DNA of 64,000 bases, from positions 1,746,005-1,810,004 of the forward strand of contig CAVQCT010000002.1 in the NCBI GenBank assembly GCA_963711085.1, read 5' to 3'. A model generated the notes under the pieces. It was not told the DNA's origin. It was given only the letters and a program-made list of their open reading frames with translations, and searched no databases. This DNA comes from an uncultured candidate division Zixibacteria bacterium. Lineage in GTDB: Bacteria; Zixibacteria; MSB-5A5; GN15; FEB-12. Position numbers and translations under genes: made by a program. Shown here one piece after another: positions 14 to 32,915 of this stretch. Positions within the stretch are counted from its first letter, which is position 1. The number at the start of each line of letters is the position of its first letter.

Positions 14-817
14 TCAGCCGTTGGGAGCGATGCTCCCTTTGGACACCGTGCCCGGTTGTCCGGGATTGTCTTTTTTCTTACTATGGCTTTTCGGGCGTTT
101 GGACGCCAACTTCTGGCCGCTACCGGTCGGCTTCGATGAATAGTCGTAGTAGCTGTAGTCGTAATAGTACGGCAGGCTGCCGGTCATGTTGTTGAGCACT
201 ACGCCAAGGATGCGATCCCGTTCGGAATTCAGGATCTCCACCGCCCGTTTGACCACTTCCTTCTGCGTCGCACCTGCCTTCACGACCACGAGGATGCCGT
301 CGACTTTCGACGCCAGCATCATTGGATCGGACACGGGCAACAACGGAGGGCAGTCCACCACGATCAGATCGTAATAGAACTTCAGTTCTTCGATCAAATT
401 CCCGATCGCATCGGCATCGAACACCTCGGTCGGGTTGCTGCACCGGCGACCGGAAGTGAGGACGTCGAGCTTGTCTATTGAAGTCTTCTGGATGGCGTCT
501 TTGTGGTTGTAACCATCGACAAGAATCTCGACCAGGCCGGGATCGGAGGTCATTTTGAAGAACCGATGAATCGAGGGTCTTCGAAGATCAGCGTCGATGA
601 GCAGGGTCTTGTATCCCTTTTTCTTCGCGGCCGTGATAGCCATAAACGAACAGACCGTGGACTTCCCTTCGGACAGCATGGCCGAAGTCATCATCAGCGA
701 TTTCAGTTCACGTTCCTGACCCCGGCCGAATACTTTGTAGAGGAGTCGCCGAAACTCGGTGACATAAGGGGATTCGAGGTCGTACAGTTCAATGATGGAG
801 TGTTCAGAACGAGCCAT
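14..817 (-). CDS. BY-kinase (CpsD/CapB/Wzc-C type protein-tyrosine autokinase)
   Basis: 267-aa ORF. Walker A SEGKST, A' LLIDADLRRP, Walker B IVVDCPP, C-terminal Tyr cluster YYYDYSYYDY. Last gene of the export operon. Confidence 0.85.
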   Translation of the reverse strand: MARSEHSIIELYDLESPYVTEFRRLLYKVFGRGQERELKSLMMTSAMLSEGKSTVCSFMAITAAKKKGYKTLLIDADLRRPSIHRFFKMTSDPGLVEILVDGYNHKDAIQKTSIDKLDVLTSGRRCSNPTEVFDADAIGNLIEELKFYYDLIVVDCPPLLPVSDPMMLASKVDGILVVVKAGATQKEVVKRAVEILNSERDRILGVVLNNMTGSLPYYYDYSYYDYSSKPTGSGQKLASKRPKSHSKKKDNPGQPGTVSKGSIAPNG

Positions 818-820
818 AGA

Positions 821-1942
821 TCAACCTTGCTCCGCGATCTTTTTGACCAGTCGGTTTGCCGATTCGTGCACCTTCTCGGCCTCATCGATATACGAGGTAA
901 GCCGGGTAAGGGCCGGATTGATTTCGAGAGTCTTCAGATATTGATCGATCCCCTTCTTCCAGAGGATTCTTCCCTGCTCCAGATAGCAGCGGGCCAGTTC
1001 CGCGTAGAGATCGACATAGGTCGGATTCTTGGCGATTTCGGATTGCAGAAAGCGGATTCTGTCCTGTACCGCCCGTTCGGTGGCCCACTGGGGATGAAGG
1101 GCATATTTCATGTAATAGGGGGAGAATTTCCGACGGTGCTGCTCTTTCTTGTCTTCGCGCACCTGCCTCAGCAGGGTGAACGCCCGCTTGAGATCCTGCG
1201 CCTTGAGCGCTTCGATTCCCGTCTCATAGATAGCCGACTTGTAATCCGGATTGATAAGAGTCGCCTTGGTGAAATAATCCTGCGACTTGGTGAGAAAATT
1301 AGTGAACAGCTCGGTGTCGTTCCGCTCCAGAGCGTTCAGTATTAGCGTGAGGCCGTAATTGAAGTAGGCATCGCTATAGTACAGATTTATGCCGATCGCT
1401 CGTTCAAACTCGAGGGTCGCCTTCTTGTACATCTTCGCCGCCATGAAAGCTTCGCCTAAGATATTGCGATAGTCCGCGTATTCCGCTCGAAAGCCGACGG
1501 CCGATTGCGACATTTTCAGCGCCGCCTCGACATTGCCGTAGACCAGCTCCACCTGAGCAAGATGGCTGTACGCCTCGTGATATTCCGGATTCGCCTGAAT
1601 GGCCTGCTCAAACAGGTCCTTGGCTTCGGCATAAAATCTCTTGTAGAAGAACGCCAGGCCGAGATGAAACATCATCTCCGGGCTGCCTTCAGCCTTCATG
1701 TGCCGATAGGCGTTCAGGAGCGTCTCAATCTCTTTCTTCTTCTCCCCGTGCGTCGACTTGACCATCGACAACACCTCTTCCGGCTTGATATGTTCCGGAT
1801 GCGGGAAGACGATCGTGTCGGCGAGGGCGCCGTTGATATAGACCTCGGACTCGACTGTCCCGAGGCTGACGTCGTTGGTGGTCTTGATGAGATATTCCTT
1901 TTCCTCATCCACCAGCTTGCTGTTCAAACGATAAGTTTCCAT
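821..1942 (-). CDS. TPR-repeat protein inside EPS export operon
   Basis: 373-aa ORF with repeated A/Y/F-rich 34-aa helical repeats (e.g. AYSHLAQVELVYGNVEAALKMSQSAV, AYFNYGLTLI). 3-6 nt gaps to both neighbours. Confidence 0.7.
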   Translation of the reverse strand: METYRLNSKLVDEEKEYLIKTTNDVSLGTVESEVYINGALADTIVFPHPEHIKPEEVLSMVKSTHGEKKKEIETLLNAYRHMKAEGSPEMMFHLGLAFFYKRFYAEAKDLFEQAIQANPEYHEAYSHLAQVELVYGNVEAALKMSQSAVGFRAEYADYRNILGEAFMAAKMYKKATLEFERAIGINLYYSDAYFNYGLTLILNALERNDTELFTNFLTKSQDYFTKATLINPDYKSAIYETGIEALKAQDLKRAFTLLRQVREDKKEQHRRKFSPYYMKYALHPQWATERAVQDRIRFLQSEIAKNPTYVDLYAELARCYLEQGRILWKKGIDQYLKTLEINPALTRLTSYIDEAEKVHESANRLVKKIAEQG

Positions 1943-1948
1943 CTGTCT

Positions 1949-3439
1949 TTACCTGCGAAGTTTCTCGATCTTCGGAATGGTCGCGATTACCGGGAGGTTC
2001 AACTCGTATTCGATGTCGTCGACCCGTTTGAACGAATTGTCCAGAATTTCAATCAGGAAGACGAATGCTCCGCCGAGCACCAGCCCCATCGCGAAACCTA
2101 TGATGATGATATTCCGCTTGTTCGGCCAATATGGAGCGAGCGGCACCTGGGCCGGTTCGATAACTTTGTACTTGGTCCGCTCCTTGGCCTGCTCGGACAA
2201 TATTCCAACTGTCGCCTCTTCCGACCTGAACGCGTCGCGGTACTTGCGGGCATCGGCGACCTTGTTCTCCAGCTCCGTTATCTGAGACTGCAGCCGTGGG
2301 ATCAAATTGATCCGGCCGGCGATTTCGTCAAGACTCTGCTGTAATCGCTGCTGCTTGGAATTGTCTATGTCAAGATTCTCTTCGAGGACAAAACTCCGCT
2401 GAAGCATCGCCAGTTGATTGGCCGGGTACGAAGAATACTGTTCGGCGGCGGAACTCGTCACCGCTTCTTCGAGATACTGCGTGTAGTTGTTGAGGCGGAT
2501 GTTCACATTGATGACGTTCTGATCATCCCAGGTGTACTTCTCCATCATGTTGGCATAGGTGGAGATCAGCTGGTCGATTGTCGTACGGAGCTCAACGATA
2601 GAGTCGTTGTATTTGAGTCGGGCTTTGCCGAGGTTGAAATCGGCCAGCTTCTGCTTGAGGGAATTGAGTTCGCGGGAATAGTCGTCGCGCTCCAGGCCGA
2701 TCTTGTCGATCGTCGATACGATGTTGAACCGGTTCGTTTCCGAGGCGATATTCTCCGGCAACTGCAATTTGGACAGCTTGCTCTGAGCGGAATTCAGGGA
2801 ATCAATCGCCTGCTGGTAGTAGAATTCTGTCTTCTGCAGCTGAACATCGGCAAACGACTGATTGTCGAGGATCTTCTCCATCTCGTACTTGGTCTTTTCC
2901 TGGTCGAGAATCTCGGTCAGCCGGTTGGCCATGTCGCGGGCCATGACCGGATCGGTATTGGTAACGGAAATCTTCACCTGATCGAGGCCATAGAACGAAA
3001 CGCCGATCTCTTTTCTCAGTTTGTCGACGAGCAGGTTGTACTTGATTTGATCGAGACTGTACTCGGGGGTCTCTTCGCGCGCTTTGGCCGCTTCGCGGGT
3101 AACATCCGGATCATCGTCAAGCTTCAGGTCCCGAATCAATTGGTACAGATACGGCTGCGAGGTAATCTCGGCCTGAAGAGCGAGCTGGCGGCTCTGCTGT
3201 TCGTCGCGGGTCTCCGGACGATTACCGCCGACAATACTTGCCAATTCGCGTGATGCATTCTCAGGCTTGTCAATCCAGATAATGGTTGTGGATTCGTACT
3301 TCGGCTTCAACAAGAATGTTCCGCCGTAAGCCATCGCCGTAATCACCACCAGAGGCCCGACAATCAGCCACTTCCGTTTCAGTATTATCGCAAAGATGTC
3401 TTTGAGATCGATTGATTTGACTTCTTTGGGCTGGAGCAT
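1949..3439 (-). CDS. Polysaccharide chain-length determinant (Wzz/GumC/PCP family)
   Basis: 496 aa. N-terminal TM (WLIVGPLVVITAMAYGG) after a KDIFAIILKRKW Wzz-type start, long coiled-coil periplasmic region, C-terminal TM (IIIGFAMGLVLGGAFVFLIEIL). Confidence 0.8.
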   Translation of the reverse strand: MLQPKEVKSIDLKDIFAIILKRKWLIVGPLVVITAMAYGGTFLLKPKYESTTIIWIDKPENASRELASIVGGNRPETRDEQQSRQLALQAEITSQPYLYQLIRDLKLDDDPDVTREAAKAREETPEYSLDQIKYNLLVDKLRKEIGVSFYGLDQVKISVTNTDPVMARDMANRLTEILDQEKTKYEMEKILDNQSFADVQLQKTEFYYQQAIDSLNSAQSKLSKLQLPENIASETNRFNIVSTIDKIGLERDDYSRELNSLKQKLADFNLGKARLKYNDSIVELRTTIDQLISTYANMMEKYTWDDQNVINVNIRLNNYTQYLEEAVTSSAAEQYSSYPANQLAMLQRSFVLEENLDIDNSKQQRLQQSLDEIAGRINLIPRLQSQITELENKVADARKYRDAFRSEEATVGILSEQAKERTKYKVIEPAQVPLAPYWPNKRNIIIIGFAMGLVLGGAFVFLIEILDNSFKRVDDIEYELNLPVIATIPKIEKLRR

Positions 3440-3451
3440 AAATGAAAGTCC

Positions 3452-4459
3452 CTAACGGGCAGTCGAGGTATTGTTGTTATTGTTATTATTGTTATTGTGA
3501 AGCGCCGTGTATATCAGCACGGCCGTCGAAATCACTCCCAGGGCCGTCCCGGCCGTTCCAAGTCCAACACCCAGGAAGCCTCCGCCGCTATGCGGCAGGA
3601 TGAAGGTATCCTCCCGGCGCATGATATATCTCGCCGGCGTACCGGTCTTGGAGTACTTGTCAAGATTCACTTCGATCGTCTGGGCGTAGTATCCGTCCTT
3701 CGTGATGATCCTCGCCTTTTTCAGGTTGGCATTCTCTGCCGGACCGCCGGCAAGAGCCAGCGCCTGAAGGATGTCGATATTGTCCTGGTATTGAATCGGA
3801 CCCGGATTGTTGACCGCGCCGATCACGTAGATTTCGTTTTTCTGCGAAGTCGGCGGACCGATCTCAGCCGACGGGAGCCCCGACGGTACTCGCGGAATGT
3901 CAATCGTGTCGCCCCGGCCGATTTTGGGCAGCTTGTCCAGCTGGCCGCTTTCGATCGCCTTGAGAACATTCACGATTTCGACTTTACCTGCATTGTCGCC
4001 GCCGCGGATAATCGTGACTCTGGAAAGGTCACCGAATTCAGTGATTCCTCCGGACTCGTTTATCACCGTCCACAGATCGGGGATTTCCTCGAATGTATGC
4101 TTCCCGGGGTTGTTAATCTGCCCTTTCAGAAAGACGTACTGGTATTGATAATCAACCACTCTTACCGTGGCCTGAGAGACCCTGGTATTCAAGCGGCTCA
4201 TCTGACGGATAATGTCGTTTTGGAGTTCGGTTGGGGTTTTCCCGGCCGCTTTGATCGATCCTACAATATCCAGGCTGATCATACCGTCATTGTCGACTCG
4301 AACCTGGGCATTCAAAGTCTCGTCCTGCCAGAACCTGACATCGAGCACGTCGCCCGGCCCGATTACATACTCAGCGGCCTGAATCAGGCCGGCCAGACAG
4401 AGGACGGCGAGTCCGGTTATGAATAGATACGCATATTTTTTCATGGCAAACTGTCTCAT
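3452..4459 (-). CDS. Polysaccharide export protein (Wza/Poly_export + SLBB) with poly-Asn tail
   Basis: 335 aa. Signal peptide, GPGDVLDVRFW Poly_export motif, SLBB-like repeats (VYVIGAVNNPG), C-terminal hydrophobic helix, then 9 consecutive Asn. Start may instead be ATG at 4444 (MKKYAYLF). Confidence 0.8.
   Translation of the reverse strand: MRQFAMKKYAYLFITGLAVLCLAGLIQAAEYVIGPGDVLDVRFWQDETLNAQVRVDNDGMISLDIVGSIKAAGKTPTELQNDIIRQMSRLNTRVSQATVRVVDYQYQYVFLKGQINNPGKHTFEEIPDLWTVINESGGITEFGDLSRVTIIRGGDNAGKVEIVNVLKAIESGQLDKLPKIGRGDTIDIPRVPSGLPSAEIGPPTSQKNEIYVIGAVNNPGPIQYQDNIDILQALALAGGPAENANLKKARIITKDGYYAQTIEVNLDKYSKTGTPARYIMRREDTFILPHSGGGFLGVGLGTAGTALGVISTAVLIYTALHNNNNNNNNNTSTAR
3470..3496 (-). repeat. 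Mixed AAT/AAC codon tract encoding N9 at the Wza-like C-terminus
   Basis: ttgttgttattgttattattgttattg on the plus strand. Confidence 0.9.
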
Positions 4460-4599: not shown

Positions 4600-6234
4600 T
4601 TACATGGCCGGCGTGTAAATAAGCGACTTATTACGTCCAGTTTCCTTGGCTTTCAAGAGGGCCATATCGGCGGCAAAGATCAGCTTTTTGGGGTCATCGG
4701 CATGATGGGGGAAAATCGCTCCGCCAATTGAGACCGTGCAGTGCAGAGGTTTTTCGATTCCGTCAACCGCGAACTCTTCCCGGCCGATTCGGTTCTTGAG
4801 GCGCTCCATAAATCGGACACAGGTTTCTTCGTCCGCCTCCGGCATAATGGCACAAAATTCGTCCCCTCCGTAGCGGGCGACAATATCGATAGTCCGAATC
4901 GAGGTTTTCAGAATATCCCCCATCCTACTCAGGAGAGCGTCCCCGGCCAGGTGGCCGTAGGTGTCGTTGGTGCACTTGAGATCGTCGAGATCGAACATGA
5001 TGAGAGCAAGATTGCGCTGATACCGTCGGGCGCGACTGACTTCTTCATCGAGACGCTTGAAAAAGTAGCGCTGATTGGCAAGACCGGTGAGATTGTCGGT
5101 GTACGACATTTCTTCGATTACTTCGAACGATTCGGCGTTTTCGACCAGTTCGATTGCCGAACTCTGGAACGACTTGAGCTTCTCCACCACCTGGTTTGCC
5201 TCGCCTCCTCCTGCCCAGGCAATCAGCCCGGGGCGGTCCTCTCTGAGCGGAAACGAAGCGGTGAATTTGAGTCCTCGGTCGTTCACGTAATTTATCCATT
5301 CCCGGGTTTCGGATTGGCCCTGTACGATCGAGCCAATTTCGGTATACTCCCGCCCCTGAATTTGGTCGAGGATCTCTTTGAGGGCCGCTATCGATGGTCC
5401 GGGAATCGGACTGGTAATTCCGCGCTGGACGAGAACCGTACCGCCGTTGTCGAGACGCGTGGCATACAAATAGACCAGCCGGTCGGCTCCCATGATTTCC
5501 TTCAAGGCATCCACAATTCCGGGTACGACAGTTTCGGTTCGTCGGTTGCGTACCAGCCTGAGAATCTTACTGACCGATTCCTCGCGCTCGCCTGTTCTGA
5601 CCGGAGGGGTCTTCCTCTCCTCCATTGATGTCAACAGGGTCTCATATTTGGCTTCGTGCCATTTGATATGGTAGGCGGCGGAGAGAGATTGGGCCAGACT
5701 TGCCAGCAGGAACAGAAAGGCCGGCGATTCGGTACTTGCAGTGCTTCGCACGAAATATACACCGTAGAGATTCTCTCGCCAGAAGATCGGGATATAGATA
5801 TCCATTCCGAACCGGGACAGGCTCTCTTTCAGCTTGTTCGGCAGGAGCTCGGCCAGCTCCGAGGTCGGGTGCGGGAAGAAGTCTTCGCGAAGCCGGCTGG
5901 CGAAAGGCTCGCTGTAGCGCATTCTGAAATCGTTTCGCTGGAATCCGTTGATACCGTGATAATAGTTCAGTTCGAGCGTCCCGCGTTTCTTTCGCAGGAA
6001 AACGATCCGTTCACATCCGAACGATTCAATCAGCAGGCTCGACACCTTCCGGGCGACCTCGACAATCGACCCCTTCAGACTGTTGGTGAGGAGAAATTCT
6101 GAGAAGTCGTTCTGCCGCATATTGCGGAACGCTTCACTCATGCGGCGCTCACGCCTGATTCTCAACAGGAGCAGCGCACTGAGGAGCAGGACCAGTCCGA
6201 CAAGTACGATTATTAGAATTGATTGCACCGACAT
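4600..6234 (-). CDS. Membrane-anchored diguanylate cyclase (TM + GAF-like regions + GGDEF)
   Basis: 544 aa. N-terminal TM ILIIVLVGLVLLLSALLLL, active-site RYGGDEFCAIM, RxxD I-site (RTID) 5 residues upstream of GGDEF. Confidence 0.85.
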   Translation of the reverse strand: MSVQSILIIVLVGLVLLLSALLLLRIRRERRMSEAFRNMRQNDFSEFLLTNSLKGSIVEVARKVSSLLIESFGCERIVFLRKKRGTLELNYYHGINGFQRNDFRMRYSEPFASRLREDFFPHPTSELAELLPNKLKESLSRFGMDIYIPIFWRENLYGVYFVRSTASTESPAFLFLLASLAQSLSAAYHIKWHEAKYETLLTSMEERKTPPVRTGEREESVSKILRLVRNRRTETVVPGIVDALKEIMGADRLVYLYATRLDNGGTVLVQRGITSPIPGPSIAALKEILDQIQGREYTEIGSIVQGQSETREWINYVNDRGLKFTASFPLREDRPGLIAWAGGGEANQVVEKLKSFQSSAIELVENAESFEVIEEMSYTDNLTGLANQRYFFKRLDEEVSRARRYQRNLALIMFDLDDLKCTNDTYGHLAGDALLSRMGDILKTSIRTIDIVARYGGDEFCAIMPEADEETCVRFMERLKNRIGREEFAVDGIEKPLHCTVSIGGAIFPHHADDPKKLIFAADMALLKAKETGRNKSLIYTPAM

Positions 6235-6595: not shown

Positions 6596-6985
6596 TTACA
6601 TCCCGGACTTTTTTTTTCCGTCGTCGGCCGGTACCTGCCCGAAAGCATCACGCGCGTCGTCCACCGTCGGGAAGACCTTCAGCACGTTGTCAAACTCAAG
6701 CAGTTCATAGATTTCGTATACGTTCGGGACCATGCTGGCCAGCTTGATATCGCCGCCGTTTGAACGAACATCTTTGATATGCGATATGAAAATCCCCCAG
6801 CCGGCGGACGAAATATACTCGACCCCGGCGAGGTCAATGATCAGGCGATAGCGCTCTCTTTTCAAAAGGGAATCAATCACCTCTTCGAGTTCGCCAGCCG
6901 TCAGCGTATCGATCACGCCGTCGACCCGGATCTCGGAGATTTCGTTCCGGCTGCCTTCCTGAAGAGATATTGAAATATTGTCCAT
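6596..6985 (-). CDS. STAS-domain anti-sigma-factor antagonist (SpoIIAA/RsbV/HsbA-like)
   Basis: 129 aa. Canonical phospho-Ser context DLAGVEYISSAGWG. Confidence 0.85.
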   Translation of the reverse strand: MDNISISLQEGSRNEISEIRVDGVIDTLTAGELEEVIDSLLKRERYRLIIDLAGVEYISSAGWGIFISHIKDVRSNGGDIKLASMVPNVYEIYELLEFDNVLKVFPTVDDARDAFGQVPADDGKKKSGM

Positions 6986-7073: not shown

Positions 7074-9116
7074 TTACTGCTGAGATGGCCGATCCGAGAC
7101 GTTCCTGACGTCAACTGACGGCTGTATCGATCGGGCCACTGGCTGCTGGTGGGCCACGGCGGAGTGGCAACGAGACAGAATGAAGGTAATATCGTCGTGA
7201 GCTTTGACGAATCCGGTGAAGTCGTCGATATCGGCCGTAATTCGTTTCGATATCTCGGCCACGCCGACCTGCTCATCTTCGGCCAGGATCCGTTCAAGCA
7301 GCTCTTTGAGTCGAGGCATTCCATATACCTGTCCGTCGCGATCCTTCGCCTCCGTGATACCATCGGTAAAGATAAAGAACAAGTCGTCATCTTCGAGCTG
7401 CATCGTCACTTCTTCGAGAATACGTTCGAACGAAGTTCCCTCGGTTTCCGGAAGACCCAGCGGCATTCCTTTCGGATTGACCTGAAGCATCGCCTTCCTG
7501 CCGGCCCGGTAGAACAGCATCGGATTGTGCCCGGCCGAGACGAAATTGATCGATCGCGAAGTAGCGTCGTAAATGACCAACAGGACGGTCACAAACATGC
7601 CCGGCGGAATGTTGTCTTTCAAATAGTGATGGACCTTGATGAGGGTATGGCGCGCCGACTGGGCATCGGCCGAATAGATCTGAATGACCGTCCGGAGCAT
7701 CGACATAACCAGCGACGCCGGAACACCCTTACCGGATACATCAGCGACCACCAGGCAGTATCGATCCTCAGAGACTTTGAACAGATCGTACAGATCCCCG
7801 CCGACAATCGACGCTGCACGATAGAAAGCATCGATTTCGAGGTGTGGTATGGCAGGGAGGTCGTTCGGAAGCAGCGTCTTTTGTATCTGCGAGGCTACTT
7901 CGATTTCCTTGGCCATCTTCTCGCGCTCGATGATATTTCTGCGGTCCTGCGACAGACGGGTCATCATCTGGTTGAACGCTTTGGAGATTTCGAAGAACTC
8001 CTCGGCGCCCTCCAGCGGCATCTCCGTTTCGAGATCGCCGGACGTGAACCTTCGAATGCGATTGGTAATCTTATGAATTGGATTGACGAAATAGTTCGAG
8101 AGCAGATAGATGCCGAGGATTCCGAACATGACCAGGATTACCGTCAGGATGAGAATCCGCTGGCGGGCCTCTCGCAGCTTGTTATAGATGGCGGCCGAGG
8201 AATAGGTCACATGAACTTCGCCCAGCAACTTCTCCCCTGTCATGATCGGCATGTTCAGGTACTGCATGTTCTCGTTTTCATAGCGGAGCGGCTGCGGGAC
8301 TCCCTCAATGCTCGGGCTGACACCCGGAGGATCTTCGTACGGTTTCCGGATATTGTGAATATCATCTGAGTGCGCCCGGATTATTCCCTGATCATCGGTC
8401 AGCACGATCAACTTGAGTTCCGGGTTGGCCCGGCGATAACTCACGATCAACTCGTCGAATTCCACGTCGGATCGACGGTTGATGAAGTACCCGGCGGCCT
8501 GATCGGCAATTGTCTTGGCCAGCGATTTGACCGTCTCGTCTTTGTGAACGTACATCTGGCGGGAAGTTTGAAAATCGAAGTAGTAGATGGAGCCGCCGAT
8601 GATAATCGACATGATGATAAAAGTCCAGACCGAGAATTTCACCCGCAAGGTGAACATACGGCGCAGGAGTGAACGGCTGACCGGCGCGGTGTCACCGATT
8701 CGCTTGATCATGCGGAGTTCGTTGAATCCGGCAGTCGAGATGTATTCCACCGAATCCATGATCTTCTGGATCATGTAGAACCCGAGCCCGCCTTTGCGTC
8801 CCGATTCCACCAGCCGCTGGAGATCGAACGTTCCGCTGCCGCCCGGCTGGAACGACCGTCCGAAATCGATCAGCGAGAAGATGACGAGCTTCTTGTAAAT
8901 GACTACCCTGAGCCGGATAATTCCTTTTTCGTAGAGGTAGGCATGGCGGATGATATTGGTCGCCCCTTCTTCGATCGCCAGCATGACCGCGGCAATCTCC
9001 TTTTTGGACATGGAGGCGGCGATGCAGCTTTCCCGGACCGTGCGCTGGATGCCGTCGAGGTACTTTTCCTCGGCGATAAACTCGGCATTGATCTCTTTTA
9101 TGGGGCGGCGAAACAT
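7074..9116 (-). CDS. Fusion protein: RsbW/SpoIIAB-type Ser kinase + 2 TM sensor + HAMP + SpoIIE/PP2C phosphatase
   Basis: 680 aa. N-box EEGATNIIRHAY and GGLGFYMIQ at the N-terminus. TM helices at FSVWTFIIMSIIIGGSIYYF and LILTVILVMFGILGIYLLSNYF. HAMP region. PP2C motifs GGDLYD, VVADVSGKGVPASL, FTDGITEA. Confidence 0.8.
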   Translation of the reverse strand: MFRRPIKEINAEFIAEEKYLDGIQRTVRESCIAASMSKKEIAAVMLAIEEGATNIIRHAYLYEKGIIRLRVVIYKKLVIFSLIDFGRSFQPGGSGTFDLQRLVESGRKGGLGFYMIQKIMDSVEYISTAGFNELRMIKRIGDTAPVSRSLLRRMFTLRVKFSVWTFIIMSIIIGGSIYYFDFQTSRQMYVHKDETVKSLAKTIADQAAGYFINRRSDVEFDELIVSYRRANPELKLIVLTDDQGIIRAHSDDIHNIRKPYEDPPGVSPSIEGVPQPLRYENENMQYLNMPIMTGEKLLGEVHVTYSSAAIYNKLREARQRILILTVILVMFGILGIYLLSNYFVNPIHKITNRIRRFTSGDLETEMPLEGAEEFFEISKAFNQMMTRLSQDRRNIIEREKMAKEIEVASQIQKTLLPNDLPAIPHLEIDAFYRAASIVGGDLYDLFKVSEDRYCLVVADVSGKGVPASLVMSMLRTVIQIYSADAQSARHTLIKVHHYLKDNIPPGMFVTVLLVIYDATSRSINFVSAGHNPMLFYRAGRKAMLQVNPKGMPLGLPETEGTSFERILEEVTMQLEDDDLFFIFTDGITEAKDRDGQVYGMPRLKELLERILAEDEQVGVAEISKRITADIDDFTGFVKAHDDITFILSRCHSAVAHQQPVARSIQPSVDVRNVSDRPSQQ

Positions 9117-9175
9117 AGGTGCAACGTAGTAAAGAGTGAATGGTTCGTCTATTTAAAAAAGCCCGCCGGGCGAGT

Positions 9176-11005
9176 CTATTTCGACTGTTCGGATTTCAGG
9201 CGGAGTTTGGCTTGCTCGATATTGTTGAGCGTATTGATATTATTCGGGTACGCTTTCAACACCTGGTTCCAGGAATCGATCGCCTTCTGGTACTCATGGT
9301 TGCGCATGTACCGGAGCCCGTCGAGATAAAGCGCCCAGATATCCTTGTCCTGCTGCAGATCCTCGAGCGTGGTCGTCTTCTCCTCCGTGACGGCTATCCG
9401 TTTAAGATAGTCGAGCGCGACCGGATTGTTGCTGTCGACTGAAAGGACGGCCGAGAAGGTCGCCTTGGATTTGTCGTACAGTTCGTTGTTGTACTGCTCG
9501 ATTCCCTTGTTGATCTGCTGGGCGATATCGAGGTTCTTGGCAACCTTGCCGCGCAAGGCGAGCACTTCGGCATTCCCCGGATCGAGATCCAGAATCCGGT
9601 TATAGGCCTCGATCGCACTGATGTAATTCCCCTGTTTCTCGGCCTGTCTGGCGGTTTCCATCTCGACCGCGATATCCTTGGACATCGCATCGTCGATCTG
9701 CCGCTTCAGCTCGTTGGCCGCTTCGTGATTCGGGTTGATATCGAAAATCAGGTCAAGCATGTCGAGAGCCGCGCGATAGTATTTCTTGGCGAAGAAGTTC
9801 TCGGCCTGGGCAAGATACGCCTGGACTGATTTGTCGAGTTCGCGCTGCGCTTCTTCGATTCGTCTCTGTTCTTCCTGCTGGAAGTTGATCGAATTTTCGA
9901 TCGCCGCTATCGTCCCGATAATCTCAGCGTCGTGCTCCTTGAACGCCAGGGCCCGCTGATAGTAGGCCAGGGCGGAATCGAGCCGGAAGCGGTTGTAGAA
10001 TTCGTCCGCCTTGTCTTTGTAGAACTCGAACTGCTTGCGTCGCTCGTCTTCGAGCAATATAGATCCTTTCGCCTGCTCGGCCTTCTCCCGTTCCGCCAGC
10101 TGCTGATCGATCGATTTGCCGAGAAGGAAAGAAACCGAGAAGCGATGACTGTCTTCGATATAGCTGAGCATTTTGTAGGCGTAATCAAACCTGAAGCGTT
10201 CGAGCTGAACACCGGCCCCGAACGAGAGATTATCCCGGTCGTACCCGGCCCGCAACATGTAATTGTTGTACAAGGTGAATTCTACACCGGTGTGCACCTC
10301 GACCTCCTTGTTCTCGATCTTCTCCAGATCGAACGAGGCTGCCAGCCGGTCCGTTTTCGAAAGAGCCAGATCATGAACTGCCATTCCGCCGACGATCGAA
10401 ATGGGCGAAGTTTCCGATGAATTCTTGAGCGTTAACTCTGGCGGGACAAGATTCCTGAAGAGGAGACCGAAACTGACCTTCTTGCGGATATGAGCCATCA
10501 TGCCGATGTCGAATCCGAATCCGTAGTCGGAGAGATTATCGAGCGACTGATTTACGATCTTGAAACTCAGACCGGCGGAGACGCTTCCCTGAAGATTCTT
10601 ACCGTACGCCAGAATGACCTCGGAGTTGGAATAGCCGAACGTCCCCTCGTCGGTATAGTCGTTTCTTCGTACAATGTCATTCGTACCGATGCGCATGTAC
10701 CCGATGCCGATGCCGCCAAGTTTAAGATCGGGATAGACCCATCCGCCATAGTCAAAGATCGAGCCTTCGAACAGAGTCATATGCATGGCGGAAAATTCCT
10801 GCCACTGCAGCGAGGCCAGGCCGGCAGGATTGTAGTAGATCGCGCTGGCGTCGTTCGCCAGGGAGGTAAACCCGCCTCCCATACCGAGCGCCCGGGCGCC
10901 CACACCGACGGAGAAGGGTGTTTCCTGCCCAGCCTGATTGACGGCAGAAACCGACACCGTCAGACAGCCGAACAGCAGGGCCAAAAGAAATGCGCGCGTC
11001 TTCAT
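9176..11005 (-). CDS. Outer-membrane FadL/PorV-like beta-barrel fused to C-terminal TPR domain
   Basis: 609 aa. Signal peptide MKTRAFLLALLFGCLTVSVSA, FadL/PorV-type N-terminal signature ARALGMGGGFTSLANDASAIYYNPAGLA, alternating beta-strand pattern to about residue 300, then TPR repeats. Start overlaps the upstream stop (ATGA). Confidence 0.65.
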   Translation of the reverse strand: MKTRAFLLALLFGCLTVSVSAVNQAGQETPFSVGVGARALGMGGGFTSLANDASAIYYNPAGLASLQWQEFSAMHMTLFEGSIFDYGGWVYPDLKLGGIGIGYMRIGTNDIVRRNDYTDEGTFGYSNSEVILAYGKNLQGSVSAGLSFKIVNQSLDNLSDYGFGFDIGMMAHIRKKVSFGLLFRNLVPPELTLKNSSETSPISIVGGMAVHDLALSKTDRLAASFDLEKIENKEVEVHTGVEFTLYNNYMLRAGYDRDNLSFGAGVQLERFRFDYAYKMLSYIEDSHRFSVSFLLGKSIDQQLAEREKAEQAKGSILLEDERRKQFEFYKDKADEFYNRFRLDSALAYYQRALAFKEHDAEIIGTIAAIENSINFQQEEQRRIEEAQRELDKSVQAYLAQAENFFAKKYYRAALDMLDLIFDINPNHEAANELKRQIDDAMSKDIAVEMETARQAEKQGNYISAIEAYNRILDLDPGNAEVLALRGKVAKNLDIAQQINKGIEQYNNELYDKSKATFSAVLSVDSNNPVALDYLKRIAVTEEKTTTLEDLQQDKDIWALYLDGLRYMRNHEYQKAIDSWNQVLKAYPNNINTLNNIEQAKLRLKSEQSK

Positions 11006-14000
11006 TTGACCACCGCCAGTTTTAGACGAGCATGCTCATCGGTCGCAGCATCCCGTATAGACACGATATACACGCCGTTGAAGACCATGATGCCGTCATC
11101 GTTTCGACCATCCCAGTAGATGAAGTTCTCTCCGGATCGTCCGCCTTCACCGCCTGCGGTATAGTCTTTTGCGTAGACCATCTCCCCGGTAAGGGTAAAG
11201 ACGCGGAATTCGACCCTGGCATCGGCCGGCAACTCATAGCTAAATTCAAGGGGAGATTGGATCGGATCAGTTGGGTCAAACGGATTGCTCCTAACAAGGA
11301 ACGACGACTCTAGGCTCGCCCCTTTGATAGCCAGCGACTCATCCATGATCGAACTGCCCGGCTGATCGGATGTTATTACCGGCGCCTGGCCGGCGTTCGG
11401 TCCGGCTATGAACACGGCTTGAATCTGGTCCTTGGCCAGCTCCAGATTCAGCGTTTCCACTTTCGTGTCCTTCAGCTCGGCGACAAAATTCAAGGTTCTG
11501 GTCACACCGGCATCCAATTGGAAATGGTCGAAGGTAAAGACCAGCCGGTTATCACTGGCGGTGGTCATGGCGACTTTTATGCCGTTTTCGAAAAAGCCGG
11601 TGTTGCCGATATTGATCACACTGCGGACATCGACAGGTACACCTTTGCCGTCGCGTGCCAGGATTTCTATTGTGTTTATCAGGAGATCGGCAAGCGGCGA
11701 AGCGCCGCTGTTCGTCAGCTCGAGATCGAAGATCTTCTGGCTCCGGCCGGGAAGGATAAGGCTCGAACCTACCTGAGTGGCATTCACCACCAGCTGGCCC
11801 TCGGAGGAGATCACTCGAACTATGACCGTAAACGTAGTGTCGCCGATCCTGGCCCGGCCACCGAGATTTGCGTCGTTCGGAATACCTGTCAAAGCAAAAG
11901 CAAGGGTAATGGTCGTGTCAAAGCTCGGGGAAGCAAACGAAAAGCTTAGCGGCTTGTCCGCTGAAATGGTCCCGGTTGTGGTATCCGGTTTTATCCGATC
12001 AAAACCGCCTGCGATCATGCGGTAAGTTCCATCGGTAACATCGGCTTGTCCACTGTTTGACAGCACGACACTCAACTGGAAAGCGGTGTTGAAATCTACC
12101 ACCGATGAACTTGCTCCCAGGAGGCTGTACGAGAGGCTCAGATTGGCCGGCGTCTCGATCGTGATGAAGGCGATATTGTCTATAGGTGGAGCCTGGCCGA
12201 CGTCGGAAGAGATGATCTCCGCTCGGAAGACTTCTGCCTGTACCGATACATTGGCCGCCTGGATAGCAAAGAGCACTTCGGAAGTGTCATGGGCTCCTAT
12301 GTCATGAACAACCAGATCAGATTGGAAAATCGAACCGCCGTCGGACGTCAGGCGCACGATAACCGAATCGATCGGAGTCGAAGACGTGTTTGCGACCCGG
12401 CAAGACAACTGGAAGTTTTGCGACGTATTCACCCGGGGGGCATTTGGAGCTACGACGTCCAGGCTGAGTATTTGCGCCACCGGATGCTCCACGACATGGA
12501 TCGGGAAGCCCACCGTGTCAAATGGAACATAGTACAAAAGGGTGTCGGGAATTCCCGGAACGCAATAGTGGACCGAAGCGGCGGTGGAGAGATTATTCCC
12601 GGCTTGATTCTCCGGAATGAAGACGCTGATGCTCGTCAGCGTGTTAGTGCCGGGAATAAAGGTGTCATCGGGACTCTGGAAGAGGGTTGAAATATTGAAT
12701 GCGTCTCCTGAAAGCCGAAAATCAGTGTTCATCGGGCAATAGCTCAGCGGAACGGTGCTCTGCAGATCCAGATCAAAACTGAATGCGCTATTAGTTCCGG
12801 CGAAGACGGTCGACGGACCGAAACTTCCGCTCACATACGAGAAACTCACCGCGGGAATGACTACAATTGAATCGGGGTATTCGTTTTCAAGCGTAAACAG
12901 ATTACCGGAGCTGATTATGTGATAAGTCACCTTGACGAAATAGGTCGTCGGCGCCGCCAGTGTATCGTCGGTGTAAACAACGGGAAGGTCGCGATAGCTT
13001 ATAGTACCCGACCCGATCGAGGAGTAAGTCGGGGATCCGTCGAAAAGCGTGGCGAATGGCGTACCGCCGGAGTCAGGGGCAAGCTGAACCGACAGATGGA
13101 CGCTGTCTATCGACCCTTCGAAACCTTCTTCGAGAATATCCAGCGAAAGATTGAAACCATGTCCGGAGAGTATGGTGTCCGGCTTGAGAGAACCGTTGGC
13201 AACGCTCAAGACCGCTGGTCCGGTTACCACGATCGGGAGCGCAAGCGTATCGGCAACAGAGTAAGCCAGTCCATCGGCGGTGAAATGCGATGATAGCACA
13301 AAGACGAGGGTGTCGCTCGCCGGATAGGTCACGTGAACGGGAAGCTGCAGGGGGAGTGAGTCGACCTGACCTGAAGCGCTGCCGGTAAAACTTGTCTGAA
13401 CTGCTCCTCCTTCGCCGGATCTGAATCGGGCGGAAAGCGTCACCGGGGCATCGGGCTCCAGATTGCCGTTATTTTGTACCGGGACGGTGACGGAAATGTT
13501 GTGACCCGCGACAACGCTGGTAACTGTGCGTCCGGTAAGATCCAGGGCATCGTCAATATCGTAGCCGTTGAAGTGGACGGTAATCGTGTTTGAGTTTAAG
13601 CTGCCATTGGTGGCGTAGATTTGAGCCGCCGAAGTAGCGCCGAGATAGCGGACATTGGCCGACAGCACTCTCACAACTCCACCGATCTGCAAACTGTTGC
13701 TGCTGAGAATACTCGGCACCAGTTGCCCGTCGCTTGAAACCAACGTGATCGGGTTAGCCGCGAGATCGTAATCCTTCTTGAGGTTGTTGTAATGGTCATA
13801 CAGAATGATCGAAGCTGCGGAGCGAAGGACTTTGCCCACAAACTGGGTGTCGGCGACATTCAGCACCATCCGCTCCAGGTCGCCGGCTACAACCGTTATC
13901 TGGCCGGACCTTCCGGAGACGGCCCCTGATATCGCAACGACAACACCGGTACCGGCACGCGTCACAGTCAGCACCGAGTCGTTGAATATCCCGATGCAGT

Positions 14001-14709
14001 TGGTACAGGCTTCGAGTGTCCAGCCGAAAGTCAGGCCGGGAATCGGATTGCCGAATTCGTCATACCCGACAGCACTGAAAGTGATATTGCTGCCCGCTTT
14101 GACCGTGGTGTCATTGTGGGGTATCACGACAATCGAATCAAGAGCGGCCGGGTTTATCGCAAAAGCCAGCGAGAAACCAGGGTTGGGCCGCCCCGCTAAT
14201 TCAGGTTGAGGCTCTACCTCGACCGCGTAGCTGCCGGCTCTTTTCGGATTGATAATACCCGGGAGCTCAAACGATCCTTGTATCCGGTCCGGGTTCGTTG
14301 AGCCGGAACTTTGTGAGGCCGCGATTGCAACCGCAGTGAGTCTAAAATCAATCGATCGGTCTGCCGGGTTGATCTGGTCGATCGTACAGTCTGGGGAGCC
14401 TGACGCTCCGCTTGAATTCTGCGCACTTAGTTTCGAGAGGTCAAACCCTTCCGGCAGAATCAGACGGTAGACACTGCGAGTGTCGGGGACGCTGTCGGCC
14501 CGGATACTGTAAGTAATTTTCAGGCTGGTTTCTTGGCCGGCCACCCTGGAAAGCAGAGCGCAATTCAGGTCTTGAGGCGATGTGGAGTGAGGCTGATCGA
14601 TATCTTCCCGCGAAGCAGTGGTAATTTGCTCCGAAATCGGCTGGGACAGGACAGCGACAGGCAGGAGGAGTGCGAGTGTCAGAAGAAGAGCGTATTTACC
14701 CATTTGCAT
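11002..14709 (-). CDS. Large secreted adhesin-like protein (Big_2/CARDB-like repeats) with T9SS/FlgD-Ig-type C-terminal domain
   Basis: Track ORF runs to 14763. The likely start is MQMGKYALLLTLALLLPVAVLSQ (signal peptide) at 14709. Big_2-like ITFSAVGYDEFGNPIPG. CTD: SNPFDPT...VEFRVFTLTGEMV...YWDGRNDDG...GVYIVSIRD...KLAVVK. Confidence 0.75.
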   Translation of the reverse strand: MQMGKYALLLTLALLLPVAVLSQPISEQITTASREDIDQPHSTSPQDLNCALLSRVAGQETSLKITYSIRADSVPDTRSVYRLILPEGFDLSKLSAQNSSGASGSPDCTIDQINPADRSIDFRLTAVAIAASQSSGSTNPDRIQGSFELPGIINPKRAGSYAVEVEPQPELAGRPNPGFSLAFAINPAALDSIVVIPHNDTTVKAGSNITFSAVGYDEFGNPIPGLTFGWTLEACTNCIGIFNDSVLTVTRAGTGVVVAISGAVSGRSGQITVVAGDLERMVLNVADTQFVGKVLRSAASIILYDHYNNLKKDYDLAANPITLVSSDGQLVPSILSSNSLQIGGVVRVLSANVRYLGATSAAQIYATNGSLNSNTITVHFNGYDIDDALDLTGRTVTSVVAGHNISVTVPVQNNGNLEPDAPVTLSARFRSGEGGAVQTSFTGSASGQVDSLPLQLPVHVTYPASDTLVFVLSSHFTADGLAYSVADTLALPIVVTGPAVLSVANGSLKPDTILSGHGFNLSLDILEEGFEGSIDSVHLSVQLAPDSGGTPFATLFDGSPTYSSIGSGTISYRDLPVVYTDDTLAAPTTYFVKVTYHIISSGNLFTLENEYPDSIVVIPAVSFSYVSGSFGPSTVFAGTNSAFSFDLDLQSTVPLSYCPMNTDFRLSGDAFNISTLFQSPDDTFIPGTNTLTSISVFIPENQAGNNLSTAASVHYCVPGIPDTLLYYVPFDTVGFPIHVVEHPVAQILSLDVVAPNAPRVNTSQNFQLSCRVANTSSTPIDSVIVRLTSDGGSIFQSDLVVHDIGAHDTSEVLFAIQAANVSVQAEVFRAEIISSDVGQAPPIDNIAFITIETPANLSLSYSLLGASSSVVDFNTAFQLSVVLSNSGQADVTDGTYRMIAGGFDRIKPDTTTGTISADKPLSFSFASPSFDTTITLAFALTGIPNDANLGGRARIGDTTFTVIVRVISSEGQLVVNATQVGSSLILPGRSQKIFDLELTNSGASPLADLLINTIEILARDGKGVPVDVRSVINIGNTGFFENGIKVAMTTASDNRLVFTFDHFQLDAGVTRTLNFVAELKDTKVETLNLELAKDQIQAVFIAGPNAGQAPVITSDQPGSSIMDESLAIKGASLESSFLVRSNPFDPTDPIQSPLEFSYELPADARVEFRVFTLTGEMVYAKDYTAGGEGGRSGENFIYWDGRNDDGIMVFNGVYIVSIRDAATDEHARLKLAVVK

Positions 14710-15002
14710 CGATAGCGCGCCTACTATTTTTACCGTACGGAGTTTGATCAACAGATAGTACATAATATCTCAGCAAAGTCTATGCCTCAGAGGGCTTTGG
14801 ACGGCATTTTGCGCCGGAATAAATATCCTCCTTCGGACGAGATATCCACATCGGTAACCAATTAACACGCAAGTATTTAGGAAGTCAGGCAGGTCCCTCG
14901 TTGTCCATCACGTCAGAGACGCAAGCGAATAAGGCGAGAAGAGAAGCGATCGATATGTAAACAGTTGCACTTATGAACTAGCCGTTTGCAGTCAACAAGC
15001 TG

Positions 15003-30740: not shown

Positions 30741-32915
30741 CTATCTGAAGAGCGAGAGAATCACTTGCGGAACCTGATTGGCCTGGGCAAGCATGGAGGT
30801 ACCGGCCTGGACCAGAATCTGGTTCTTCGTGAACTCTGACATCTCAGCGGCCATATCCGTGTCACGGATCTGGGACTCAGAGGCTGTCAGGTTCTGTGAC
30901 GCGATCTGCAGGTTTCTCAGGTTGGATTCCAGAGTGTTCTTCTGGAAGCTGCCGAGCGTACCGCGGGTCGTCGATACTTCGTTAATGGAGGCATCAATGA
31001 TGGACTGAGCGTCCTGCGCACCCTGTACGGTGGTGACGTCGATCTGGGCGAGCGACCGGAACATGTTGCCGGCCAGGTTGGTACCCAGTGACGAAGCCGC
31101 CAGGTTACGCAGACCGATGTTGGCGGTCTGACCGACGTTGGCGCCAATCTGGAAGACGAGCGAACGGTCGGTGTCGTTAATGGTTTCCGAACCACCCTGA
31201 GAGGTCAGGCTGTACTTCAGAATGAGCGACTCGCTCCGGTCGGCATTGTACACGGTGGCAGATTCGCCGGCCGTGACTGAAGTCGCCGGACCGCCGTCGA
31301 GGCGCACGTCGAACTTGGCAGCCTGGACGTCGAGCAGCAGATTGCCCACGTTGATACCGTTAAGGGCCTTGGCAACCTTCATATCAACCGTGCCCTGATT
31401 GCTCTTGCCGTCGGCGGCGCTCTTCAGGGTAACGTTGTTCGTGGTGCCATAATTGACCTTAGTAATCGTATTGGTGTAGTTGTCGAACGCAACCAACGCA
31501 TCGGTACCGGTATTGGCCAGCGTGTCGGTAGTCAGACCGAGCACGTTGCGCAGGTTACCGGTGATGTCGTTACCGGCGTTCAACTTGAGCGAATAGTCCG
31601 AACCCTCGTCGCGGGTGGCAAATTCGATCTGGTTGGTGTTAACCAGGGTAGCAGCCAGATCGCTGACGGCCGTGTCGCCGGAGACCTTACCAAACGCCGT
31701 GTCAAGCGCCGTGTTGATGGCGGTGACCAGGGAGCTCAGTGAGGTGTATGTGCCGGCGCCGACTGTGACGTTGGCGCTGACGTTGCTGTTGGTAGCAGTG
31801 TTAGCGGTGAAGTTCAGGATGTTGGCGGAGACACCACGCGAACTGCCGGCCGTAAATGAGAACGCAGCCTGGGCAGCGTCGGTCGAGGTGGCTTCGGTCT
31901 TCACTGAATACTGAGCGCCTTCGTTGGCGGCCCAGATACGCAGAGCGCCCGCGGCGGTACCGGTCACGGTGATCTTACCGGCCAGAGCGGCGTTCAGGTT
32001 GATCTGCGTCTGCAACTTGGTCGCGATGGTAGCAGTCGTGTCGCCGAGCGCGACGTCGACGTTCAGAGACTGGTTACCGGTCGGGGACTCACCGTTCTCC
32101 TGATAGTTCAGAACGAACGTGTAAGTACCGACGTTGGAGGCGGTCGCCGCAGCGATGACGGCAGCCGAAGAAACGAGCGCAGCCGATTCACTGCCGCTGG
32201 CGGCGATGGTCAGGTTGTTACCGAACGCATCGGCCAGGGTGATCGAATCGGAAACTTTCTTCGCGACGTCGGAGGCCTGGACCACGTCGAGATTGTAAAC
32301 TTTCTCAGCGAGGTTGGTCGGATCGCCGTCGGTGTTGCTCAAAGACAGACCGAGGGAGGTCGTGTTCAACGTTGCACTCGAATCGGCGGTCTTGGTGGCC
32401 GTGATCGAGTGGGTGCCGTTCTTGAGCTGGGAGGTTTTCACCTGGACGCCGGAACCGTTGGAGGAAGTGATCGTCGCGACGTTGTCGTTCGTACCATCCA
32501 GCAGTTTCTTCGTACCGAACTGGGTATTGGCGGCAATACGATCGATCGTCTTGATCGCATTGGCAATTTCAGCCTGGTCGGCTGCCAGCTGATCGGCATC
32601 ATTGAAACCTTCGTTGGCCGCATGAATGGCCAGTTCTCTCATCGAGGTCAACAGATTGTTGATTTCGCTGAGTGAACCTTCAGCGGTCTGCACCATGTTG
32701 ATGGATCCCTGCGAATTCTCGATCGCCTGATTCAATCCGGCAATCTGAGCGCGGAACTGCTCGGAAATCACCAGACCGGCCGGGTTGTCGGAACCCTGGT
32801 TAATACGATAACCAGACGACAGCCGCTGCATTGACGCATTCAATGCATCGGTGGTGTTCAACAAATTCCTGTGCGCGTTCAACGCGGCCAGGTTGTGGTT
32901 GATTTGAAGTGCCAT
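30741..32915 (-). CDS. fliC: Flagellin with very large Ser/Thr-rich central domain (724 aa)
   Basis: N-terminal MALQINHNLAALNAHRNL...RLSSGYRIN. C-terminal NQILVQAGTSMLAQANQVPQVILSLFR. Confidence 0.95.
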   Translation of the reverse strand: MALQINHNLAALNAHRNLLNTTDALNASMQRLSSGYRINQGSDNPAGLVISEQFRAQIAGLNQAIENSQGSINMVQTAEGSLSEINNLLTSMRELAIHAANEGFNDADQLAADQAEIANAIKTIDRIAANTQFGTKKLLDGTNDNVATITSSNGSGVQVKTSQLKNGTHSITATKTADSSATLNTTSLGLSLSNTDGDPTNLAEKVYNLDVVQASDVAKKVSDSITLADAFGNNLTIAASGSESAALVSSAAVIAAATASNVGTYTFVLNYQENGESPTGNQSLNVDVALGDTTATIATKLQTQINLNAALAGKITVTGTAAGALRIWAANEGAQYSVKTEATSTDAAQAAFSFTAGSSRGVSANILNFTANTATNSNVSANVTVGAGTYTSLSSLVTAINTALDTAFGKVSGDTAVSDLAATLVNTNQIEFATRDEGSDYSLKLNAGNDITGNLRNVLGLTTDTLANTGTDALVAFDNYTNTITKVNYGTTNNVTLKSAADGKSNQGTVDMKVAKALNGINVGNLLLDVQAAKFDVRLDGGPATSVTAGESATVYNADRSESLILKYSLTSQGGSETINDTDRSLVFQIGANVGQTANIGLRNLAASSLGTNLAGNMFRSLAQIDVTTVQGAQDAQSIIDASINEVSTTRGTLGSFQKNTLESNLRNLQIASQNLTASESQIRDTDMAAEMSEFTKNQILVQAGTSMLAQANQVPQVILSLFR

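Follow-up and report, generated by a model that had tools for sequence, protein, structure and literature searches.

A 64,000-nucleotide stretch of the genome of an uncultured candidate division Zixibacteria bacterium, hereafter the window, carries two overlapping reverse-strand genes that encode a secreted protein, P0001, ending in a C-terminal sorting domain (CTD) of the kind used by type IX secretion systems (T9SS), and an outer-membrane beta-barrel fused to a tetratricopeptide repeat (TPR) tail, P0002. The most fitting view of the pair is that it makes up the outer-membrane half of a larger cassette, conserved and undescribed, which continues into a membrane sensor kinase/phosphatase, a STAS protein, a GGDEF cyclase and extracellular polysaccharide (EPS) export genes. 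The best explanation as a whole, to which we assign a probability of about 0.5, is that P0002 is a dedicated PorV-family carrier or anchor for P0001, a putative Sec- and T9SS-dependent rod-like surface protein, and that its TPR arm talks to the partner-switching sensor encoded next to it. The features of the pair are as follows.

11002..14763, reverse strand: P0001 cargo gene, an open reading frame (ORF) of 1253 amino acids (aa)
11005..11292, reverse strand: CTD of P0001, residues ~1158-1253, a divergent type-A-like subtype
11002..11005, reverse strand: ATGA stop/start overlap of the cargo and barrel genes, read directly as ...GTC AAA TGA with ATG in the overlap
9176..11005, reverse strand: P0002 barrel-TPR gene, an ORF of 609 aa
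10115..10933, reverse strand: PorV/PorQ-family outer-membrane beta-barrel of P0002, residues ~25-297, including the N-terminal GARALGMGG...YYNPAGL motif
9182..10111, reverse strand: TPR/helical-repeat tail of P0002, residues 299-608, by Pfam TPR models and AlphaFold (AF2)

The ORF coordinates, the strand and the ATGA overlap given for this pair in an earlier reading of the same DNA (the original prediction) are exact. By curated profiles, P0002 is a member of the PorV/PorQ family, yet not an orthologue of PorV or PorQ. The NCBIfam family model PorV_fam (NF033709) reaches 114.8 bits against a cut-off of 90, spanning residues 32-293 and profile positions 8-324 of 326, and the FadL/PorV signature claimed earlier for the barrel N-terminus is present at residues 36-65 (GARALGMGGGFTSLANDASAIYYNPAGLAS). 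The AF2 model, built on 41 homologues, has a mean predicted local distance difference test (pLDDT) score of 85.9 and comprises a barrel at residues 69-295, with about 15 strand segments by DSSP as a rough count, followed by an all-helical tail at residues 299-608. A Foldseek search of the PDB with this model places two PorV chains at the top, 8gl6_F, which comes from a substrate-bound SprA-PorV complex, and 6h3i_F, with E = 5e-11 and 4e-10 and target-normalised TM-scores of 0.62 and 0.66, FadL and TodX ranking after them. Profile and fold thus bear out the PorV-family assignment made originally. The other barrel families proposed with it fall short, PorP/SprF (TIGR03519) scoring 30.2 bits against a cut-off of 90.55 and FadL/TodX (PF03349) 20.5 bits against a gathering threshold of 29.7, on the N-terminal motif only; the 'PorV2' equivalog is also under its cut-off.

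These scores bear on a reading in which the barrel is unrelated to T9SS, acting either as a FadL-type uptake channel or as a TPR-scaffold export porin (PgaA, BcsC, PelB, Slam) for the EPS genes, with the upstream CTD protein merely a neighbour. It is highly improbable: FadL and TodX are indeed the next-best folds, and Pfam Toluene_X and TPR_Slam match P0002 weakly, but PorV chains beat FadL in the fold search and the FadL model stays below threshold, whereas PorV_fam passes. The proximity of Wza/Wzz genes fits an export porin, but a second class of barrel-TPR loci, described below, has a histidine kinase and no Wza/Wzz match among the genes recognised after its STAS pair, and all 45 loci have a CTD-bearing gene coupled upstream. 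PgaA, BcsC and Slam carry their TPR domains N-terminally, the reverse of the domain order in P0002.

The C-terminal ~300 residues, originally described as all TPR, pass several Pfam TPR models (TPR_1 at 44.1 bits and TPR_2 at 43.6 bits, both above cut-off) and coincide with the all-helical segment of the model, and the tail is conserved over its full length in more than 300 P0002 homologues. Outer-membrane barrels of this class have both termini facing the periplasm, so the TPR tail of P0002 should be periplasmic.

The CTD motifs quoted in the original prediction are all present in the cargo tail (NPFDPT...VEFRVFTLTGEMV...YWDGRNDDG...GVYIVSIRD...KLAVVK), and its assignment to the T9SS type-A domains is supported by profile comparison. 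The final 100 residues of six P0001 orthologues were made into a profile, which hhalign aligned to one built from the genome's own 56 canonical CTDs, with 98.7% probability and E = 3e-16 in an end-to-end match reaching the last residue. The P0001 tail is therefore a divergent type-A-like CTD, homologous, as judged from sequence profiles, to T9SS type-A CTDs.

Upstream of this domain, orthologue alignment and hydropathy place the start of P0001 more likely at M19 or M21 (14709/14703), followed by a hydrophobic signal segment (hydrophobic stretch at residues 20-45). The resulting length of ~1235 aa agrees with the secreted protein originally described. Residues 55-1253 are modelled by AF2 as all-beta (pLDDT 84.9), forming a chain of about 11 Ig-like beta-sandwich domains for which Foldseek returns generic multi-Ig/MG-domain matches only, with TM-scores of about 0.1, and no enzyme domain was found in P0001. 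The Big_2/CARDB-like repeats first attributed to the cargo were dropped, since Pfam gives no Big_2 and CARDB only at E = 0.15, and the AlphaFold fold consists of generic Ig-like sandwiches. Listed in public sources as a 'hypothetical protein', P0001 has orthologues of 33-69% identity in which the CTD is the most conserved region; the passenger evolves fast, with lengths between 848 and about 2000 aa across loci.

The homologues of P0002 number more than 300; they are 47-86% identical to it, about 595-629 aa long (most 600-611), named 'PorV/PorQ family protein' by NCBI and labelled as Zixibacteria apart from a few loosely labelled metagenome-assembled genomes; the two nearest genomes are tagged 'Ignavibacteriales'. 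About 85 of the 121 Zixibacteria genomes sampled contain a full-length orthologue, at identities down to 26%. A paralogous barrel-TPR class of 668-710 aa (class 2, P0002 belonging to class 1) is also widespread, and its representative in this genome scores 89.7 bits on PorV_fam, just below the cut-off of 90. For comparison, 25 class-1 and 20 class-2 loci, 45 in all, were annotated with profiles from this genome's proteins. A CTD-bearing ORF lies immediately upstream of the barrel-TPR gene in every one of them, mostly with a 4-base (-4) overlap, so that the cargo/barrel pairing posited earlier is conserved across the phylum. The two classes differ in CTD signature, ...NGVY...TGE..LKxAVVK in class 1 and ...PGTYFCRI..SGR.E..RKIAVxR in class 2, and the barrel class matches its own CTD subtype in 45/45 loci. 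Gene linkage together with these class-specific subtypes suggests that the P0002 barrel is dedicated to P0001 cargo alone. In a tree of barrel domains, the TPR-fused barrels group apart from the plain PorV-like barrels of the genome (support 94/93), and class 2 forms a clade (100/100). At distant class-1 loci the upstream housekeeping neighbours differ while the cassette stays.

The cassette extends downstream of P0002 through the following genes.

7074..9116, reverse strand: membrane sensor kinase/phosphatase (680 aa), with HATPase_c_2 (anti-sigma-type kinase), a transmembrane segment, an sCache-like periplasmic domain, a second transmembrane segment, HAMP and SpoIIE/PP2C
6596..6985, reverse strand: STAS (anti-sigma-antagonist-type) protein, Pfam STAS 68.6 bits, position conserved
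4600..6234, reverse strand: membrane GGDEF diguanylate cyclase, Pfam GGDEF 152 bits, N-terminal transmembrane segment predicted
3452-4459, reverse strand: Wza-like EPS export gene (Pfam)
1949-3439, reverse strand: Wzz-like EPS export gene (Pfam)
821-1942, reverse strand: TPR protein among the EPS export genes (Pfam)
14-817, reverse strand: ParA/AAA_31-type BY-kinase-like protein among the EPS export genes (Pfam)

The sensor combines SpoIIE (145 bits) and HATPase_c_2 (65 bits) in one 680-aa protein, has transmembrane segments at ~155-180 and ~316-345 with sCache_3_2 between them and HAMP thereafter, and gives no Pfam match to a Response_reg receiver input; the STAS protein is its presumed substrate. 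In class 1, a membrane SpoIIE/PP2C sensor immediately follows the barrel-TPR gene in 24 of the 25 loci, and is itself followed by the STAS protein, the GGDEF cyclase, whose position is kept in most loci, and the Wza/Wzz export genes, the EPS block (14..4459) likewise lying downstream in most. In class 2, a membrane SpoIIE phosphatase of 525-633 aa comes next in 20/20 loci, abutting or overlapping the barrel gene with no intergenic space, and is followed by a STAS+HATPase_c_2 protein and a STAS protein, with a histidine kinase in the domain-checked copy. Across both classes the PP2C sensor therefore adjoins the barrel-TPR gene in 44/45 loci. Phosphatases of both classes have two transmembrane segments around a periplasmic domain of ~130 aa (~126-147), and these domains are homologous between the classes (hhalign 95.4%, E = 2e-8). 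The barrel tree, the homology of the periplasmic domains and the 44/45 adjacency together indicate that the triad of CTD cargo, barrel-TPR protein and periplasm-sensing PP2C protein arose once, was duplicated as a unit and stayed contiguous while its downstream outputs diverged.

Two observations on these loci may be added. The class-2 cassette of this genome, on contig C6 at 616305-631986 and outside the window, consists of a 3100-aa CTD protein, an ATGA overlap, a 675-aa PorV-like barrel-TPR protein (625604-627631), a membrane SpoIIE phosphatase of 542 aa, a STAS+HATPase_c_2 protein of 257 aa, a STAS protein of 120 aa and, at its end, a 552-aa GAF/HisKA/HATPase histidine kinase. The STAS gene of class 1 (6596-6985 in the window) encodes 128-140 aa in the window and close relatives and 214-270 aa in many other class-1 loci (L032, L037, L039-L053), indicating that it exists in a short and an extended form.

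The T9SS, at least its outer-membrane part, is present in this genome by profile matches. SprA/Sov is found as one 1998-aa frame with 547 bits summed (matches of 425.9 + 116.5 bits), and PorU reaches 698.5 bits (cut-off 420). PorV-family barrels number about a dozen, alongside 56 CTDs above the TIGR04183 cut-off and 72 C-terminal CTDs by a profile of our own. Within the 64-kb window, in line with the original statement that it holds no other T9SS core genes, there is no match to SprA, PorU, another PorV-family barrel or a canonical CTD; flagellin, FliD and FlgK genes lie there, in agreement with the flagellated organism of the original prediction. The barrel thus belongs to the PorV family, T9SS components occur in the genome, the CTD is more than a generic Ig fold and the pairing is conserved, in keeping with the core of the original prediction. 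Five PorV-family barrels or barrel sets in the genome directly follow a CTD gene.

a 927-aa PorV after PorU
a 334-aa barrel after a 920-aa protein
two barrels after an 863-aa propeller-like protein
P0002 after P0001
a 675-aa barrel with TPR after a 3100-aa protein, with an ATGA overlap

The CTD is of a divergent subtype in 5/5 cases, and a barrel directly follows 5 of 27 divergent but 0 of 45 canonical CTD genes (Fisher p = 0.006). Since three other PorV-family barrels besides the TPR-bearing ones also follow divergent-CTD genes, the P0001-P0002 pair is one case of a general rule in this genome. The remaining cargo-linked PorV-like barrels, which carry no TPR, were not seen with a PP2C sensor gene next to them.

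Several loci outside the window touch on this pairing. PorU (1308 aa), an 18-nucleotide (nt) gap and the 927-aa PorV-family protein lie on contig C2 at 1059260-1065988; the latter holds ~590 residues of repeated, propeller-blade-like G-x-x-x-Y/F-D-G-x-x-W motifs between its N-terminal PorV motif (19-67) and its barrel (662-925), and at 165 bits it is a better PorV candidate than P0002. At C2:2158953-2163458, the 863-aa propeller-like divergent-CTD protein precedes tandem plain PorV-like barrels (332 and 300 aa), and these may form a PorZ/PorQ-like attachment pair, NCBIfam giving no PorZ call. A 1061-aa divergent-CTD protein runs off the start of contig C3 (C3:1-3184, reverse strand), and on contig C5 a PorV-like barrel of 332 aa starts at position 33 (C5:33-1031, forward strand); as both resemble the 920-aa/334-aa pair on C2, the two contig ends may adjoin in the genome and make a sixth cargo-barrel pair. 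A tandem array of four paralogues of ~856-881 aa occupies C2:1578056-1589024, with more copies elsewhere; these have their own CTD subtype (...SGLYYW.VE....G.TQIGK.V.IM) and no adjoining barrel.

The same inventory bears on the proposal that the pair is a lineage-specific part of the Zixibacteria T9SS machine, an analogue of PorZ-PorQ or PorP-PorE rather than an adhesin with its carrier, which we regard as unlikely. A near-universal, single-copy pair with a barrel of constant length (600-611 aa) across the phylum would suit such a part, yet about 36 of the 121 genomes have no full-length class-1 orthologue, and the fast evolution and variable length (848 to about 2000 aa) of the passenger are typical of adhesins exposed at the surface. 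The P0001 tail weakly matches the CTDs of PorU and PorZ (E = 0.007 and 0.014), but canonical CTDs match the PorU-CTD region better than this tail does. Unfamiliar parts are conceivable where canonical GldK/L/M go undetected, two of three controls being silent as well; the 863-aa propeller-like CTD protein with its two plain barrels is a competing PorZ/PorQ-like candidate. With a variable, fast-evolving passenger and another PorZ/PorQ-like pair in the genome, PorZ/PorQ identity of P0001-P0002 was judged unlikely.

Under the preferred explanation of a carrier or anchor linked to the sensor, P0001 would be exported through the SprA translocon by way of its divergent type-A-like CTD, and P0002 would be made in fixed proportion to its cargo through the ATGA coupling. 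The extracellular loops of P0002 would bind the CTD subtype of P0001, and the barrel would either shuttle the cargo out of the translocon or, more likely, keep it permanently on the cell surface. The CTD subtypes and the gene coupling lend indirect sequence support to this binding, and an anchoring role of P0002 is probable. In the periplasm, the ~310-aa TPR arm would contact the ~130-aa periplasmic domain of the adjoining sensor, an interaction proposed because these are the two clearly periplasm-facing modules of the cassette. Phosphorylation of the STAS protein would then depend on whether the surface protein is present, loaded or lost, and the STAS protein in turn would control the GGDEF cyclase and Wza/Wzz polysaccharide export, so that a signalling link may run from the surface protein to the partner switch and cyclic di-GMP (c-di-GMP).

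An extension of this explanation, which we put forward tentatively, treats the cassette as a trans-envelope surface sensor in which the fibril stays plugged by its CTD in the PorV-family barrel and yields a 'touch or wear' signal. Fibril occupancy, load or loss would be relayed via the TPR arm to the periplasmic domain of the kinase/phosphatase, which would flip the STAS switch governing c-di-GMP synthesis and polysaccharide export.

It is also possible, though less probable than the linked carrier, that the barrel is a dedicated carrier or anchor only, its TPR arm serving secretion or anchoring through docking to the translocon, a periplasmic chaperone or peptidoglycan, in the manner of the TPR proteins PorE and PorW/SprE, while the partner-switch, GGDEF and EPS genes would be members of one biofilm regulon with it and may control adhesin expression without touching the barrel. 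The PorV-family identity and the evidence for cargo linkage fit this equally well, and the T9SS is known to include TPR proteins among its structural components (PorE, PMC9143113; SprE, within the extended translocon, PMC10994853). A purely regulatory grouping does not sit well with the triad, which was copied as a whole and has kept its members side by side in 44 of the 45 loci, across two old paralogous classes whose outputs differ; none of the other cargo-linked PorV-like barrels of the genome, which have no TPR tail, was seen with a PP2C sensor following. Adhesin, c-di-GMP and EPS genes are, on the other hand, often clustered for regulatory reasons. A terminator-like hairpin between the barrel and sensor genes in the window also favours separate functions, whereas no gap separates the barrel and phosphatase genes of class 2, which abut or overlap. 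This hairpin (9162-9174, reverse strand) has a 5-bp GC stem (-5.1 kcal/mol) followed by TTTTTT and lies immediately behind the stop of P0002. Six relatives all keep the T-run unchanged, while the stem is not conserved, and a hairpin of -5 or lower ahead of a T-run is present in only 6 of 46 loci. An intrinsic terminator or operon boundary at this point was rejected, the hairpin being weak and its structure not conserved.

Several results weigh against the linked carrier/anchor explanation, or against parts of it. At the level of the barrel, the PorV equivalog (NF033710) gives P0002 21.5 bits against a cut-off of 250 and the PorQ equivalog (NF033711) 69.1 bits against 220. The P0001 tail misses the curated CTD cut-offs proposed for it (TIGR04183/PF18962 and PF13860): TIGR04183 gives no match by hmmscan or in the genome scan at E <= 0.01, and FlgD_ig (PF13860) scores 21.9 bits, under its gathering threshold of 27. 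Of the T9SS genes expected elsewhere in the genome, sov (SprA) was found, but searches for GldM and GldL gave no match, the control genomes for these two being silent too, and GldK (with GldL and GldM the porK/L/M counterparts) reached only 17 bits; the energising part of a canonical T9SS is thus at most putative in this genome. In close relatives, class-1 synteny reaches the housekeeping genes RNase Y, YmdB and FolD, which means that part of the conservation is gene-order inertia, and one class-1 locus (L044) is without the phosphatase gene. The hairpin and T-run after P0002 imply that the barrel and sensor genes could be transcribed separately. Cache-type periplasmic domains are usually binders of small molecules rather than proteins, and the contact between TPR arm and sensor, like the direction of signalling, is conjectural.

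Known systems supply partial parallels for each module. The extracellular loops of PorV bind substrate CTDs (PMC10994853), and in F. johnsoniae one PorV serves all type-A CTDs, type-B CTDs being handled by cognate PorP/SprF shuttles encoded next to them (PMC12618676). P0002 shares family NF033709 and fold with Bacteroidota PorV (LptO; F. johnsoniae 6H3I/8GL6), and it follows P0001 as the PorV-like barrel of this genome directly follows PorU. Unlike PorV and PorQ, it falls below the equivalog cut-offs and has a ~310-aa C-terminal TPR tail; unlike the F. johnsoniae PorV serving all type-A CTDs, its gene is linked to that of a single cargo, which has a CTD subtype of its own; and unlike Bacteroidota PorV in general, it occurs in a Zixibacteria genome where GldK/L/M were undetected, the controls for two of the three being silent.

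Some CTD proteins remain bound to their barrels (PorU-PorV, PorZ-PorQ, SprB-SprF and PG1035-PorP), a picture that the linkage rule of this genome matches, and PorP, the TPR-domain protein PorE and PG1035 assemble into one complex made up of a barrel, a periplasmic TPR protein and a CTD surface protein (PMC9143113). As in the PorP/SprF shuttles (SprF-SprB, PorP-PorE-PG1035), the P0002 gene lies beside that of its own CTD cargo. There the barrel holds the cargo on the surface with the periplasmic TPR partner PorE attached, and P0002 may retain its cargo in a corresponding way. The barrel family differs, however (TIGR03519 at 30 bits), the P0001 CTD is type-A-like rather than type B, and, unlike PorE, a separate lipoprotein, the TPR domain of P0002 is fused to the barrel. 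The pairing described here would extend cognate cargo-barrel pairing, so far seen for PorP/SprF with type-B CTDs, to PorV-family barrels with type-A-like CTDs. Slam1/2, PgaA and BcsC likewise join a TPR scaffold and an outer-membrane barrel in one polypeptide, and Slam is encoded beside the surface proteins that it handles; P0002 has the reverse domain order and a different barrel family, and shows no homology to them beyond generic TPRs.

On the cytoplasmic side, a PP2C/kinase, a STAS protein and a GGDEF protein make up the HsbR/HsbA/HsbD circuit (PMC5085249). The sensor of this cassette resembles HsbR/HsbA/HsbD of P. aeruginosa and SypE/SypA of V. fischeri in joining kinase and phosphatase in one protein with a STAS protein adjoining, and GGDEF cyclase and polysaccharide genes lie nearby as in circuits of that type. 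The input differs, being a periplasmic Cache-like domain with HAMP rather than a receiver domain, as does the position of the module behind a T9SS cargo and a PorV-TPR barrel.

Elsewhere in the window, two TPR-glycosyltransferase fusions (902 aa with GT2 and 552 aa with GT1) lie at 33211-37574 on the reverse strand, directly upstream of the flagellin gene (30741-32915), and are candidates for flagellin glycosylation.

Full-text literature searches returned no paper tying partner switching to T9SS in such a way and no paper on T9SS in Zixibacteria. Knowledge of the T9SS rests almost wholly on Bacteroidota, where one PorV serves all type-A cargo and only PorP/SprF barrels are cargo-specific; in this candidate phylum without cultured members, PorV-family barrels are cargo-linked, and one lineage has gained a TPR arm. 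This flagellated genome, in which GldK/L/M went undetected, contains SprA, PorU, PorV and about 57-72 CTD proteins, which bears on how T9SS-like export is powered outside Bacteroidota. If the physical link between barrel and sensor holds, it would provide a protein input for a partner-switching/c-di-GMP circuit, and a new route for reporting the state of a surface structure to the cytoplasm. Should the cassette act as a surface sensor, parts of a secretion system would be used for signalling, and PorV-family barrels outside Bacteroidota would have diversified into cargo-specific anchors.

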